Below the pieces are notes generated by a model that made no database searches, was not told where the DNA came from, and saw only the letters and a program-made list of their open reading frames with translations. Source: Chitinophagales bacterium (lineage in GTDB: Bacteria > Bacteroidota > Bacteroidia > Chitinophagales > JADJOU01). From it: a stretch of 64,000 nucleotides of DNA. Of this stretch, positions 9,116-13,508 are shown piece after piece. Made by a program: the position numbers and the translations under genes. Location of the stretch: assembly GCA_040383345.1 (NCBI GenBank), contig JBEIDU010000004.1:2635-66634 (forward strand). Direction: 5' to 3'. The stretch's first letter is position 1, and each line of letters starts with the position of its first letter.

Positions 9116-9148
9116 AAAAAGGAGAGCTAGTATGGCTCTCCTTTTTTT
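9116..9148. terminator. Rho-independent (probably bidirectional) terminator between convergent ribBA and pyrC
   Basis: AAAAA-GGAGAGCTA-gta-TGGCTCTCC-TTTTTTT. Confidence 0.85.
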
Positions 9149-9273: not shown

Positions 9274-10626
9274 TTATCTATCTTTATAGAATAGTAATCG
9301 TTTTCCATTTATTGTAGGGTTAAAAATACCATTATCATATATTAATGATCCATTTACAAAGGTTTTATCAACTTTAGATTGAAAATAAACTTCGTCAAAT
9401 GGAGACCATCCACATTTATATAATATATTTTCATGAGAAACTTTCCATGGATTATGTAAATCAATTAATGCTAGATCTGCATAATACCCTTCTCTAATAT
9501 AACCTCTTTCTTTTATTTTATATATTTCAGCTACATTATGACTTGTTTTTTGAACAATTTCCTCAAGAGATATCATCTTTTGATGGTACATTTCTAGAAG
9601 AGCACTCAAAGAATGCTGAACCAAAGGCCCTCCTGACATAGATTGTCGATAGTTGCCTTTTTTTTCTGAAATCAAATGAGGTGCATGGTCCGATGCAATA
9701 ATATCTATCTTATTATCTAGTAAAGCTTTTAAAAGTTCTTTTTGATTTTCTTTTGATTTGACGGAGGGGTTCCATTTTATCATAGCGCCCTTCGATTCAT
9801 AATCGTCCTCATTGAACCAAAGATGATGTATACATACTTCCGAAGTTATTCTTTTTTTGGATAAAGGAATATTGTTTTCCATCAAGTTGGCTTCATGTCC
9901 TGTGGTTAAGTGAAGAATATGTAGCCTACAATTGGTTCGTTTAGCTATTTTTAAAATCCGTTCTGTCGCTACAATACAGGCTTCTTCAGTTCTAATCTTT
10001 GCATGCATAGAAAATGGAATATTTTCTCCATACTCTTTACTGTATTTTGCTAAATTTTGATTGACAATATGTTCGTCTTCACTATGAAGTGCTATTAATG
10101 AGTTAGAATTTGAAAATAATTTTTCTAAAAATTCAGGATGATTGGCTATAATGCTATTTTCATTATTAAAATATAATCCATCGTCTGAAATGCCGCATAC
10201 TTTTTCATTATCTACTTTTAGCAATTCTTCAAAATTATCTTGGCAAATTCCCATGAAAAATGAATAGTTTGCAAGGGAATTTTTGGATGCAATATCGAAT
10301 TTTTCTTCTAATAAGTCGAGGGTTATCGTATTTGGAATGGTATTAGGCATATCCATAAATGATGTAACTCCTCCAGCTATAGCTGCTTTTGATTCATCAA
10401 ATATTGTAGCTTTATGAGTAAGTCCAGGTTCTCTAAAATGAACTTGATCGTCTATCATTCCCGGGATTAAATGAAGATTTTCCCCATTGATTTCATGAAA
10501 ATTAGATTGGGGATCAATAGAAATAGAGGAGCTTATTTTTTCTATACGCTCATTTTTTATAAAAATATCTGAATTAAATATTTTTCCTTCGTTTATAATA
10601 GTGGCATTTCTAATAATTGTATTCAT
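9274..10626 (-). CDS. pyrC: Dihydroorotase-family amidohydrolase (probable start MNTIIRNA at 10626); atypical metal-bridging motif
   Basis: LIPGMIDDQVHFREPG, GGVTSFMDMPNT, LHSED, HILHLT, KWNPS, ASDHAPH, YKCGWSPF. Confidence 0.85.
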   Translation of the reverse strand: MNTIIRNATIINEGKIFNSDIFIKNERIEKISSSISIDPQSNFHEINGENLHLIPGMIDDQVHFREPGLTHKATIFDESKAAIAGGVTSFMDMPNTIPNTITLDLLEEKFDIASKNSLANYSFFMGICQDNFEELLKVDNEKVCGISDDGLYFNNENSIIANHPEFLEKLFSNSNSLIALHSEDEHIVNQNLAKYSKEYGENIPFSMHAKIRTEEACIVATERILKIAKRTNCRLHILHLTTGHEANLMENNIPLSKKRITSEVCIHHLWFNEDDYESKGAMIKWNPSVKSKENQKELLKALLDNKIDIIASDHAPHLISEKKGNYRQSMSGGPLVQHSLSALLEMYHQKMISLEEIVQKTSHNVAEIYKIKERGYIREGYYADLALIDLHNPWKVSHENILYKCGWSPFDEVYFQSKVDKTFVNGSLIYDNGIFNPTINGKRLLFYKDR

Positions 10627-10630
10627 TTTA

Positions 10631-11584
10631 CTATTTTTTAATGGCTCTTTGTATACGATCATTGATAGTTTTCCCAAGTGAATAATCTGGTAATTGTTCA
10701 ATGATAATTAAATCTAAATTTTCTTTATCTAATCTATGTAAGGCGGCATAAAAGTTTTTGGCAGCTTCCTCTAAAAGTCCATTTTTTGACAATACCTCTA
10801 CATTACAGTTTTCAGGCTCAAAATCTAGCTCTCTAAATGCCACTACCCCAATTTTTCTATTGAAGTATAAGCTCATTTCTTTTTTCAAATCCGACGTAGC
10901 TATTGTGTTAGTGTTGGGCGCATAATGTTTTGACAACATGCCAGGTGCAATAGGTGTTGCATCTTGATGTGTGTTTGAAATAAGCTTTCCTGTAATGGAT
11001 TCTATAGCTTCAATAGATATAGCACCGTGCCTATAGAGTATCACTTGATCATTTTCAAATCCAATAATTGTAGATTCTAATCCACTTTTACAGGTTCCCC
11101 CGTCTAATATTAGTGGAATTTTATTTTTGAAATAGTTGGCTACATGATTCGCTTGGGTTGGGCTAATAGTGCCAAAAGGGTTGGCACTGGGGGCCGCTAA
11201 TGGAAAATCCAGGGTGTTCAATAATTGTAATGTAAGGGGATGATTGGGTACACGAACAGCTACACTATCTTTACCACCTGTAACCCATTCTGGGATAAGG
11301 GATTTCTTTTTTAATATAAGTGTTAAGGGTCCTGGCCAAAACATTTCGGCTAATTTATAGGCAATTGCTGGTATAGATTCGGCTACGGTATCTAATCGTT
11401 CCATAGAAGCAATATGGACAATCAGAGGATTGTAAAAAGGTCTTTTTTTGATTTCAAATATTTTTTTAACGGCTATTTCATTATATGCATTTCCCGCCAA
11501 TCCATAGACTGTCTCTGTGGGAATGGCTATCACTTCGTTCTTTTCTAATAATTCTTTTGCTAAAATTAAGTTTTTATCTTCCAT
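10631..11584 (-). CDS. sua5: L-threonylcarbamoyladenylate synthase, two-domain Sua5 type (probable start MEDKN at 11584)
   Basis: PTETVYGL, KKRPFYNPLIVH, PGPLT, APSAN, STII and the Sua5 linker PGMLSKHYAP, followed by a C-terminal SUA5 domain. Confidence 0.93.
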   Translation of the reverse strand: MEDKNLILAKELLEKNEVIAIPTETVYGLAGNAYNEIAVKKIFEIKKRPFYNPLIVHIASMERLDTVAESIPAIAYKLAEMFWPGPLTLILKKKSLIPEWVTGGKDSVAVRVPNHPLTLQLLNTLDFPLAAPSANPFGTISPTQANHVANYFKNKIPLILDGGTCKSGLESTIIGFENDQVILYRHGAISIEAIESITGKLISNTHQDATPIAPGMLSKHYAPNTNTIATSDLKKEMSLYFNRKIGVVAFRELDFEPENCNVEVLSKNGLLEEAAKNFYAALHRLDKENLDLIIIEQLPDYSLGKTINDRIQRAIKK

Positions 11585-11592
11585 ATTTGTTT

Positions 11593-12435
11593 TTAAGGAT
11601 TGCAAAAATTACAATACATGGGATCTTCGTATTTTTTCTTATTGGGAAACCATTGTATTTCTTCATGTAAACAATGGTTGCATTTATTTATATAAGAAAG
11701 AGTGCTATCAGTGGGCAAATTACATGCTTCGCAAGGCAAGCCCTTTTTAACTTCTACCACATCAAATCCTGGGTATTTACATTTTTTACAAGTAGATTTA
11801 ATTTTTTTTACAAGTTTTTGAGTTAGTTTTTTTAGGATCTTCATTCTCGTAGGGTTAAACATCGCTCTCATATCGGTTAAAACCAAAATGTTTTTATTGG
11901 TTTTTTTCAATTCGTTGAAAGCGCTTTTTAGTTCCTTGAGTTCTATGATTCCCTTTTTAATAATAGGTTCTCCTTCTGTTGATTTTAAGATCAGTCCGTG
12001 TGAAGGAAATTTTGCTTCTTTTGCAAAAATTAAAAGTTCCTCAATATTACTTACCGCTTTTTCATTAAAATTTGTATTCGTTGTAGATTCTTTGGCAATA
12101 ATCTCAATTTGATTTTTCTTGTCATAAATCATCATATATTCTTCTGAAAAAGGAGCAAAAAATATCATTGGATGTGAACCAAAAGATCCCTCTGATCCTA
12201 TTGCAATATCAAAACTTGAGTTCTCGAGCCCCATGATACACTTTTTTCTGAGGGTAGATATAGGATCTTCTTTGCGATCTATTTCGCCACAAAAAGTACC
12301 TAGTATGTCTGTGTCAAAATGATCAGAAACGGAACAGGTTGAATTGAAATATTTTGCAAAAAAAGGCGATATCACTTTTTCTTTTTTGTGTTTTGAGACA
12401 ATCAATATATTTCGTTTTTCAAACATTTTATGCAC
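11593..12435 (-). CDS. DUF6671-family protein with C-terminal multi-CxxC zinc-ribbon
   Basis: KHKKE, DTDILGTF-GEI-R, SEGSFG-HP, FPSHGL, TDMRAMFNPTRM, four CxxC pairs ending DPMYCNFCNP; family name recalled from these motifs. Confidence 0.75.
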   Translation of the reverse strand: MHKMFEKRNILIVSKHKKEKVISPFFAKYFNSTCSVSDHFDTDILGTFCGEIDRKEDPISTLRKKCIMGLENSSFDIAIGSEGSFGSHPMIFFAPFSEEYMMIYDKKNQIEIIAKESTTNTNFNEKAVSNIEELLIFAKEAKFPSHGLILKSTEGEPIIKKGIIELKELKSAFNELKKTNKNILVLTDMRAMFNPTRMKILKKLTQKLVKKIKSTCKKCKYPGFDVVEVKKGLPCEACNLPTDSTLSYINKCNHCLHEEIQWFPNKKKYEDPMYCNFCNP

Positions 12436-12522
12436 CGAATTTCTTTTTTTAACAGGACTTTTATTTGTAAAAAAGTAATTGTAAAAATAATATAAATTTA
12501 ATGATCCTTACTTTTATTTTTG

Positions 12523-12589
12523 CAAAATTATAGCATTGATATATAAATAAATATTTATCTTTGTTATTTTAAATATAAACAGTATTTAT
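12523..12589. promoter_or_regulatory. Divergent Bacteroidota promoters plus LysR-type boxes
   Basis: TAATTTTG on minus (12523-12530), TATCTTTG on plus (12556-12563), ATAA-N8-TTAT (12543-12558) and ATAA-N7-TTAT (12575-12589, overlapping the lysR ATG). Confidence 0.55.
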
Positions 12590-13508
12590 GAACTACACAT
12601 TGAATCAATTGCAAATATTTTTAAAAATTGTACAAACAAATAGTATTACAAGAGCGGCAAAAGAATTAAATCTAACTCAACCTGCAGTTTCCATTCAACT
12701 GAAAAATTTTCAAGATCAGTTTGATATTGCTTTGACCGAAGTAATAGGTAGAAAACTTTATGTGACAGATTTTGGAAGAGAAATAGCAGATACTGTTGAA
12801 AATATAGTCAATCAAGTGTATGCTATTAATTACAAGACACATGCTTTCAAAGGCCAGCTATATGGAAGATTAAAAATATCGGTAGTTTCTACGGGAAAAT
12901 ACATTATGCCTTATTTTTTATCCGATTTTTTGAATCAAAATCCTGGTGTAGAACTCATAATGGATGTAACCAATAAAAATAAAGTAGTAGAAAGTGTAGA
13001 ACTAAACGAAGTGGATTTTGCCCTAGTATCAATAATGCCTAATATTTATGGAATACAAAAGTTGGATTTATTGAAAAACAAGCTTTTTATGGTGGGGAAC
13101 ACAAATTTTAATTCGGTAAATAACCAAAATATAAATGAGAAAAATCTCAGTCCTTTAATCTATAGAGAAAAAGGATCTGGGACAAGACAAATTATGGAAT
13201 CTTATCTTGAACAACATCATATTGCATCCATTAAAAAATTAGAACTAACCTCTAATGAAGCAGTAAAACAAGCAGTAATAGCTGGTTTGGGATGTTCTAT
13301 AATGCCATTGATAGGCATCAAAAATGAATTGTCAAATGGAGATCTAAAGATTATCAATATGAATGGAATGCCTATAGAAACTACCTGGAGTTTGATATGG
13401 CAAAAAAGCAAAAAACATTCCCCCGTATCTATTGCTTTTTTAGAGTATTTGAAGCAGAAAAAAGACGAAATAGTCAAAAATCATTTTAATTGGTATGAAA
13501 TATATTAA
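12588..13508 (+). CDS. LysR-family regulator, CbbR/CmpR-like
   Basis: TLNQLQIF...SITRAAKELNLTQPAVSIQLK HTH; VSTGKY, REKGSGTR, SNEAVKQAVIAGLG are typical of the CbbR/CmpR subgroup. Confidence 0.88.
   Translation: MNYTLNQLQIFLKIVQTNSITRAAKELNLTQPAVSIQLKNFQDQFDIALTEVIGRKLYVTDFGREIADTVENIVNQVYAINYKTHAFKGQLYGRLKISVVSTGKYIMPYFLSDFLNQNPGVELIMDVTNKNKVVESVELNEVDFALVSIMPNIYGIQKLDLLKNKLFMVGNTNFNSVNNQNINEKNLSPLIYREKGSGTRQIMESYLEQHHIASIKKLELTSNEAVKQAVIAGLGCSIMPLIGIKNELSNGDLKIINMNGMPIETTWSLIWQKSKKHSPVSIAFLEYLKQKKDEIVKNHFNWYEIY

Follow-up and report, generated by a model that had tools for sequence, protein, structure and literature searches.

Can a type III dihydroorotase (DHOase) exchange the carbamylated lysine that bridges its two metal ions for an aspartate, and what could such an exchange be good for? 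The question is raised by a gene in a 64,000-nucleotide stretch of DNA from a Chitinophagales bacterium (assembly GCA_040383345.1, contig JBEIDU010000004.1, positions 2,635 to 66,634 of the forward strand), here called the window, in whose positions coordinates are given unless another contig is named. According to passages of PMC9771888, type III enzymes always have the carbamylated lysine, and the aspartate that bridges the Zn ions in bacterial type I, Asp151 in Bacillus anthracis, is invariant as well. The gene in question encodes a protein of type III build in which the strand that should end in this lysine reads CGISDDG. Our results indicate that it is one member of a widespread subfamily of Bacteroidota paralogues, called Asp-type here to distinguish them from the Lys-type, and that it is probably a functional DHOase with an Asp-bridged metal centre.

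An aspartate motif in place of the carbamylated lysine

The gene and the elements of its active site were located as follows.

9274..10626, minus strand: Asp-type ("D-type") DHOase paralogue, 450 amino acids (aa), ATG at 10626
10177..10197, minus strand: motif C144-G145-I146-S147-D148-D149-G150, replacing the G-[IVL]-K of the Lys-type strand end
10183-10185, minus strand: D148, putative metal-bridging aspartate, proposed by alignment
10141..10176, minus strand: remodelled catalytic loop L151-YFNNENSIIAN162, with clade-specific columns; the Lys-type counterpart is FMGSSTGNMLVD
10438..10446, minus strand: Q61-V-H63 in the translation, the HxH metal site in its type III form, with Gln for the first His

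A preliminary description of the window had reported the motif CGISDDG at 10177-10197, and it is encoded there exactly, as residues 144-150 of the open reading frame 9274-10626 on the minus strand. This frame could be extended upstream to a TTG at 10701; the homologues are 450 aa long. The 450-aa translation also contains DDQVHFREPG, KWNP and YKCGWSPF. Because contigs of three metagenome runs from three different studies match the motif region with 0 differences, the DNA at the motif is not an assembly error; the identical contigs span 9429-10447 (X2), 9825-10245 (X4) and 10012-10190 (X3). A fourth run (X6) holds a related strain, whose only difference is synonymous, in the serine codon at 10186.

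In a HMMER alignment with the type III enzyme of Porphyromonas gingivalis (2gwn; E 6e-131), 'vcgisddglyf' stands opposite 'vpglk---lfl' and, over a longer stretch, 'vcgisddglyf.nnens' opposite 'vpglk---lflgsstgn'. The lysine column is thus occupied by Ser147, and DDG constitutes three inserted residues. When compared with the type I enzyme of B. anthracis (3mpg/4yiw), 'isddg' lies opposite 'ftddg' and the loop aligns without gaps, which bears out the earlier proposal that the lysine was exchanged for an Asp motif. The Lys-type strand cited in that proposal does exist: the second paralogue of the same genome reads ICGLKIFMGSSTGN, and 28 loci read in other genomes have the lysine at that position.

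Scaffold, structural model and active-site residues

The Bacteroidota-type scaffold that had been described is a type III scaffold by profile and by fold. The window protein scores 614.9 bits against NCBIfam NF006688 (PRK09236, 'dihydroorotase'; cut-off 535), and 170-214 bits against the type I NCBIfam models, whose cut-offs are 538-576 (NF006837, 213.8 versus 575). An AlphaFold 2 model (predicted local distance difference test, pLDDT, 95.8) was matched by Foldseek to 2gwn with a template modelling (TM) score of 0.94/0.94, a root-mean-square deviation of 1.9 Å and 48% identity, and it includes the large β-sandwich adjacent domain seen in 2GWN; with type I enzymes the TM score was about 0.82-0.87 at 25-26% identity. 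A short strand of the model ends at 146-147, just before D148, and its sole low-confidence stretch, residues 153-156, lies inside the remodelled loop.

By profile cut-off, fold and the Gln that replaces His, the protein belongs to type III; it departs from that type in the carbamylated lysine and in the long flexible loop G-S-S-T-G-N, in whose place it has L-Y-F-N-N-E-N-S. With type I it has the [FI]-[ST]-D-D-G aspartate motif in common, and neither the profile cut-offs nor the phylogeny place it there. Gln in place of one Zn-α His is given as a type III trait in passages of PMC9771888 and PMC11672702, and six-residue loops are ascribed to type I enzymes in part of PMC12524618, which adds that no paper ever described the P. 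gingivalis structure.

An alignment of 60 Asp-type and Lys-type sequences showed that H63, R65, N95, H181, H236, D313 and H317 are invariant. We take R65, N95 and H317 to be binders of carbamoyl-aspartate, as in the B. anthracis and human structures; the others are presumably the remaining metal ligands and the catalytic Asp313, as in solved DHOases. The motif is under selection, as judged from the conservation of DDG in 124 of 124 Asp-type relatives (D148, D149 and G150 each 100%); position 147 is T in 98%. The columns that tell these 124 sequences apart from 15 of the Lys type cluster at a handful of sites. K gives way to T/S with DDG inserted after it; the other changes are the Lys-type loop FMGSSTGNMLVD to LYFNN.EG-ILAN, HCE to HSE beside a metal-binding His, SS to AT at 220-221, and F369Y. 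No conserved Lys peculiar to the Asp clade was found among these clade-specific columns.

Whether the first metal site has Gln or His does not depend on the Lys/Asp state, as some Asp-type subclades have His-x-His and the main subclade has Gln-x-His. Examples with His-x-His, restored or kept, are L045, L055, L070, P0129 and P0132.

Distribution and phylogeny of the Asp-type enzymes

The swap is not a peculiarity of this genome, which might have been supposed from the preliminary description; it marks a widespread paralogue subfamily, and the genome also keeps a Lys-type pyrC. Both paralogues carry the plain database label 'dihydroorotase'. The best 120 homologues listed are 62-67% identical to the window protein and nearly all 450 aa long, and G-[IL]-[TS]-DDG was found in all 120 of them and a G-x-K-[IVL]-[FY] strand in none; named sources among them are Flavobacterium frigoris, Pedobacter and Sphingobacterium. 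Asp-type sequences account for 4 of 122 full-length cluster representatives at 50% identity, two with Q-x-H and two with H-x-H.

A degenerate DNA pattern encoding C-G-[IV]-x-D-D-G-L-Y-F was searched for in a collection of species genomes and matched at least 120 genome stretches. Eighty of these loci were examined, almost all from Bacteroidota, and 78 hold an Asp-type gene; the taxa include Flavobacterium, Pedobacter, Pontibacter, Aquirufa, Lacihabitans, Chitinophagaceae and Crocinitomicaceae, and many lake metagenome-assembled genomes (MAGs). At one locus (L065, Peptococcaceae) the pattern is present with no DHOase gene and is a chance match. Several cluster-bearing MAG records (L055, L072, L043, L042/L049) are titled as unrelated taxa, such as Bordetella parapertussis, Candidatus Planktophila lacus or Lentimonas, probably through binning or labelling errors. 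Of 150 genomes sampled evenly across the phylum, 37 gave a type III match; the 29 sampled loci that were read, with nine further places left out, comprised 28 Lys-type genes and one Asp-type variant (G110, L005).

The main phylogenetic tree was calculated from 68 sequences after removal of residues 141-166, that is, the motif and the loop, under LG+G4 and without a mixture model. The 15 Asp-type sequences formed a single clade, with a Shimodaira-Hasegawa-like approximate likelihood ratio test (SH-aLRT) support of 97 in a quick search and 92/96 in a careful search, whose bootstrap was unconverged (correlation 0.915). Their sister group (91/91) consisted of 14 Bacteroidota Lys-type sequences, the window genome's own paralogue included, and this pair was nested among further Lys-type type III sequences. 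An earlier tree of 100 sequences gave the same picture. Because the Asp-type forms one clade nested among Lys-type sequences, the data are best read as a single, local Lys-to-Asp remodelling in a duplicate that probably arose inside the Bacteroidota, convergent with type I.

Paralogues and evidence for activity

The window genome (G000; 1.86 Mb, 98 contigs, 89.8% complete), which is that of a freshwater bacterium, contains three DHOase-like genes. Its Lys-type pyrC (L002, contig 49) encodes 442 aa that are 49% identical to the Asp-type protein and score 671.8 bits against NF006688. This gene is situated directly downstream of an accC-like biotin carboxylase gene (455 aa); biotin carboxylase is a bicarbonate-using enzyme. 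The third gene (L003, contig 8, 41221-42441) is degenerate and type I-like, lacks the metal ligands and reads LNAQ for HxH and FTNGN for FTDDG. Degenerate genes of this kind encode about 412-420 aa (L003 in G000, L191 in G157) and look like a non-catalytic PyrC'-type protein kept in this genus, judging by their sequences.

Each of the five isolate genomes in which an Asp-type gene occurs has a Lys-type copy as well. In two genomes of the same genus as the window, G157 (100% complete) and G166 (93%), the single intact type III-like gene is an Asp-type variant with the sequence LGVSDDGLYFTKKGN. Their other DHOase-like gene is degenerate, with IYCT for HxH and FTNQN for FTDDG, a search for a type II DHOase in G157 and G166 found none, and pyrB and pyrD are present in both. 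Since the Asp-type gene is the sole intact copy there, beside pyrB and pyrD, this gene content speaks for DHOase function of the Asp type.

These variants belong to a second Asp-type subclade, which reads G/A-V-S-D-D-G-L-Y-F-T-K-K-G-N and has D-G/A-Q-V-H. Its members come from the same genus and elsewhere (L185 in G157, L186 in G166, L184 in G162, L187 in G170, L173 in G110); they are at times the genome's only DHOase and lie mostly outside the LysR cluster described below.

Operon and conserved gene neighbourhood

In the window, the DHOase gene is the last gene of an operon in the order DUF6671-Sua5-DHOase, whose other parts are listed here.

9116..9146, minus strand: terminator-like hairpin, 12-pair stem and T-rich tail (consensus match)
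10631..11605, minus strand: Sua5-type L-threonylcarbamoyladenylate synthase, YrdC and Sua5_C domains (PF01300 202, PF03481 85, TIGR00057 193 bits)
11593..12435, minus strand: DUF6671 protein with an ITPase/YjjX-like fold and a C-terminal 4 x CxxC region (PF20376 272.9 bits)

The Sua5 stop codon lies 4 nt before the ATG of the DHOase gene, DUF6671 overlaps the Sua5 start by 13 nt, and the hairpin is located between the DHOase stop codon and a convergent ribBA. The operon Sua5 is the third YrdC-domain gene of the window genome; of five Lys-only genomes, three contain only two YrdC-domain genes, both short.

Neighbours were counted at 61 Asp-type loci with 1.1 kb or more of upstream sequence and at 42 with 3.5 kb or more. 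The gene directly upstream on the same strand was Sua5 (38), DUF6671 (12) or NADP-isocitrate dehydrogenase (IDH; 5) in 55 of the 61. Within the 42 loci, DUF6671 was present in 38, LysR in 30, Sua5 in 26, IDH in 19 and Sbt in 18. An Sbt_1 permease occurs in 37 of 78 Asp-type loci and directly follows the DHOase gene in 21 of the 50 with enough downstream sequence. It matches the 'Na+-dependent bicarbonate transporter superfamily' with 378.6 bits, and the NADP-IDH reaches 787.9 bits. BioA (526 bits) was found at 7 loci and BioD (122 bits) at 5, and a 165-aa protein matches the β-carbonic anhydrase family Pro_CA with 28.2 bits against a cut-off of 25.7. Neither DUF6671 nor LysR, Sua5, IDH or Sbt_1 was present at the 35 Lys-type loci that were checked for them.

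In DUF6671, 46 positions are invariant; eight of them are Cys that form four CxxC pairs at the C-terminus. Its structural model has a pLDDT of 92.9, and the best fold matches are YjjX, ITPase and Maf; as these Foldseek matches are weak (TM 0.3-0.5), the possible likeness of the modelled N-terminal part to these nucleotide pyrophosphatases serves as a lead only. A protein atlas search matched DUF6671 clusters only. Literature searches, with supplements outside their reach, found no paper on DUF6671 and, judged by titles and abstract starts, none on such a cluster.

A divergent LysR regulator

Divergently from the operon, a regulator gene is preceded by a candidate binding site.

12543..12558, no strand assigned: dyad ATAAAT-N4-ATTTAT, candidate LysR box, exact, 29 nt before the LysR ATG
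12588..13508, plus strand: LysR-family regulator, HTH_1 and LysR_substrate domains

The best NCBIfam match of this protein is CbbR (NF045990), with 180.1 bits, far from the cut-off of 450. Its best solved relatives are 5y2v, annotated as 'Rubisco operon transcriptional regulator' (E 4.6e-48), which we take to be NdhR, and CmpR (5z49, E 2.7e-30); NdhR and CmpR control low-inorganic-carbon genes in cyanobacteria. The link to a CbbR-like regulator drawn in the preliminary description is conserved and is stronger than that description could tell, in view of the dyad box, the Sbt_1 and β-carbonic anhydrase-like genes of relatives and the solved structures closest to the regulator; it does not extend to membership in CbbR itself.

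Of 37 intergenic regions, 26 have the dyad with at most 1 mismatch at a distance of 28-29 nt upstream of the LysR ATG; among 7400 shuffles, 243 contain the pattern at any position. Another conserved element, (T)GCAAAATTG, is located between the divergent genes at 12520-12529 of the window, about 25 nt upstream of the dyad, and at the same position in 35 of 37 relatives; it could be the promoter element of the operon, read on the other strand. A scan for σ70 promoters remained at or below shuffle level (15 found, versus a mean of 19.2).

Proposed role and alternative explanations

We propose that a type III gene was duplicated in the Bacteroidota lineage and that in one copy the metal-bridging carbamylated lysine gave way to an aspartate (D148, in [ST]-D-D-G) and the long catalytic loop was remodelled. 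Lys-type DHOase requires CO2 for its carbamate; as the carboxylate of an aspartate forms without CO2, the metal centre of the Asp type should assemble at any CO2 supply. The translationally coupled DUF6671-Sua5-DHOase operon, under a LysR regulator of the NdhR/CmpR/CbbR kind, would form a low-inorganic-carbon regulon of heterotrophic freshwater Bacteroidota, in which the Asp type may sustain pyrimidine synthesis when carbamylation of the Lys-type PyrC fails. Sua5 consumes bicarbonate or CO2, BioD consumes CO2, IDH gives off CO2, and Sbt_1 proteins bring bicarbonate into cyanobacteria. Because inorganic carbon is the simplest common theme of these genes, we favour the reading as a CO2-independent back-up enzyme. 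What the data show is the sequence and how far it is conserved, its place in the tree, the order of the genes and the box; that the enzyme is active as a DHOase, that it can do without CO2 and that inorganic carbon regulates the operon are inferred. The chain as a whole seems to us evenly poised between right and wrong. A wider and more doubtful idea, put forward tentatively, is a 'CO2-sparing' regulon in heterotrophic freshwater Bacteroidota, analogous to zinc-sparing regulons, in which the CmpR/NdhR-like LysR would turn on uptake by Sbt_1, carbonic anhydrase and the CO2-releasing IDH, together with special copies of CO2-consuming or CO2-dependent enzymes, namely the Sua5 threonylcarbamoyl-AMP synthase, BioD and the Asp-type DHOase.

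Several observations weigh against these proposals. The window genome (89.8% complete) was searched for Sbt_1 and has none, nor has its cluster an IDH or carbonic anhydrase gene, so that the 'carbon' theme in the window rests on its relatives. Among these, the Pro_CA match is marginal and limited to 5 of 87 loci, and IDH, BioA and BioD are housekeeping genes that could be neighbours by descent. The Asp-type variants of G157 and G166 lie outside the LysR cluster; conversely, LysR-DUF6671-Sua5-Sbt clusters without DHOase exist (G146, G011, G094), which makes the DHOase an optional module. The regulator's score falls well short of the CbbR cut-off, and no RNA run was among the runs listed for the locus. 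D148 is assigned to the metal site by alignment and secondary structure, and carbamylation of the lysine in a DHOase is not known to become limiting in cells.

Other explanations account for part of the same evidence. The loop with which Lys-type enzymes cover their substrate has been rewritten, and translation and gene order couple the gene tightly to Sua5 and DUF6671, as might be expected if the main Asp-type subclade were a neofunctionalized cyclic amidohydrolase outside pyrimidine synthesis, acting with these two proteins on another carbamoyl or ureido compound. Sua5 makes a carbamoyl-adenylate, and the substrate could be a product or breakdown product of threonylcarbamoyl-AMP; the operon Sua5 is an extra YrdC-domain gene, and the DUF6671 model weakly resembles YjjX/ITPase/Maf folds. 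We consider this rather unlikely, as the alignable residues presumed to bind carbamoyl-aspartate are all invariant, the sister Asp-type subclade supplies the sole DHOase candidate of G157 and G166, and at 12 of 61 loci the DHOase gene comes straight after DUF6671 without an intervening Sua5. Genuine DHOases of type I have a loop just as short, according to part of PMC12524618. That the protein is catalytically dead and supports another protein structurally, for instance aspartate transcarbamoylase, as PyrC' does in Pseudomonas, would fit its status as a second copy beside a canonical enzyme, and the genome does carry a degenerate DHOase-like gene; that gene is another one (L003), however, and it has lost its ligands, whereas the Asp-type protein is strongly conserved throughout and its other metal ligands and catalytic Asp313 are all invariant, which leaves this explanation scarcely credible.

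A changed bridging ligand might instead alter metal affinity or preference and not CO2 dependence, in which case the paralogue would be a back-up DHOase for limitation by zinc or another metal, like the Zur-regulated PyrC2 of Pseudomonas. Parts of PMC11672702 (among them section 4.3.2) treat PyrC2 as a paralogue of class III character that shares about 50% identity and the Gln substitution with the P. gingivalis enzyme of class III, place it in a Zur operon with a γ-carbonic anhydrase, and suggest that class III may include further low-zinc paralogues. The window protein is of the same lineage and is also a second copy, but the adjoining regulator is a LysR with a conserved dyad box and not Zur, and the recurrent partners are the bicarbonate permease, Sua5 and IDH, with no COG0523, ZnuABC or other zinc-regulon genes among the recurrent neighbours (Zur boxes were not searched for); we therefore hold metal sparing to be unlikely. 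As to the origin of the motif, the preliminary description had left open whether it was convergent or chimeric. Recombination with a type I gene of the Bacillus/Aquifex kind could have copied in both the Asp motif and the short loop, and [IF]-[ST]-D-D-G and the loop length do fit type I without gaps. Residues 128-185 (58 aa), when searched alone, nevertheless gave the type III 2gwn (E 0.13) as their sole match and hit none of the type I chains, few identities with 3mpg extend over this stretch beyond [ST]DDG, and with residues 141-166 removed the Asp-type sequences remained one clade beside the Bacteroidota Lys-type within type III. The segment search and the motif-free tree thus uphold the convergent alternative and led us to reject chimeric origin, a very improbable one, as the leading reading; a transfer of just about 10 residues is a possible variant of it.

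Significance

The protein is a known kind of enzyme in a new form, within a gene cluster that was not turned up in paper searches. In parts of two structural reviews (PMC9771888, PMC11672702), type III is characterized by an invariant carbamylated lysine and type I by the aspartate; the Asp-type subfamily suggests that the bridging ligand was switched a second time, inside type III. Natural Lys/Asp pairs within one organism allow tests of the purpose of the carbamate. The neighbourhood further suggests that heterotrophic bacteria may detect a shortage of inorganic carbon and adjust to it by replacing enzymes that depend on CO2, and the cluster gives a first functional handle on DUF6671. If the CO2-sparing regulon were true, the Asp type would be the first enzyme evolutionarily re-engineered to escape a post-translational need for CO2, and DUF6671 would gain a role.

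Comparison with known systems

The window protein resembles the type III enzyme of P. gingivalis (2GWN) in its match to NF006688, Gln-x-His, the large adjacent domain and its length, and the tree makes it sister to Bacteroidota members. It differs from 2GWN in having Ser/Thr and an inserted DDG for the carbamylated lysine, YFNN.. for the loop GSSTGNMLVD, and HSE for HCE at the β-site His; unlike a stand-alone type III pyrC, its gene is an accessory copy in what is probably a regulated cluster. With the type I enzymes of B. anthracis (3MPG/4YIW) and Aquifex aeolicus (3D6N) it has in common the aspartate of [FI]-[ST]-D-D-G and a short loop after it, whereas its metal site is Gln-x-His and not His-x-His, and the tree places it inside type III.

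As a second, differently built DHOase beside a housekeeping enzyme, with a regulator of its own, it is comparable to PyrC2 of Pseudomonas aeruginosa, which in the corresponding parts of PMC11672702 is under Zur control and is modelled on the class III P. gingivalis enzyme with a carboxylated Lys bridge. In the window enzyme, by contrast, the bridging ligand itself appears to be changed, and the regulator is a LysR beside bicarbonate-related genes.

The kinship of this regulator and the Sbt_1 genes of relatives recall the cyanobacterial low-inorganic-carbon regulons (CmpR, NdhR/CcmR; cmp operon, sbtA). Unlike in cyanobacteria, the hosts are heterotrophs with no Rubisco context, and no SbtB was seen. 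The putative cargo also differs: it consists of CO2- or bicarbonate-using or -dependent enzymes (Sua5, DHOase, BioD) and not of a CO2-concentrating mechanism.

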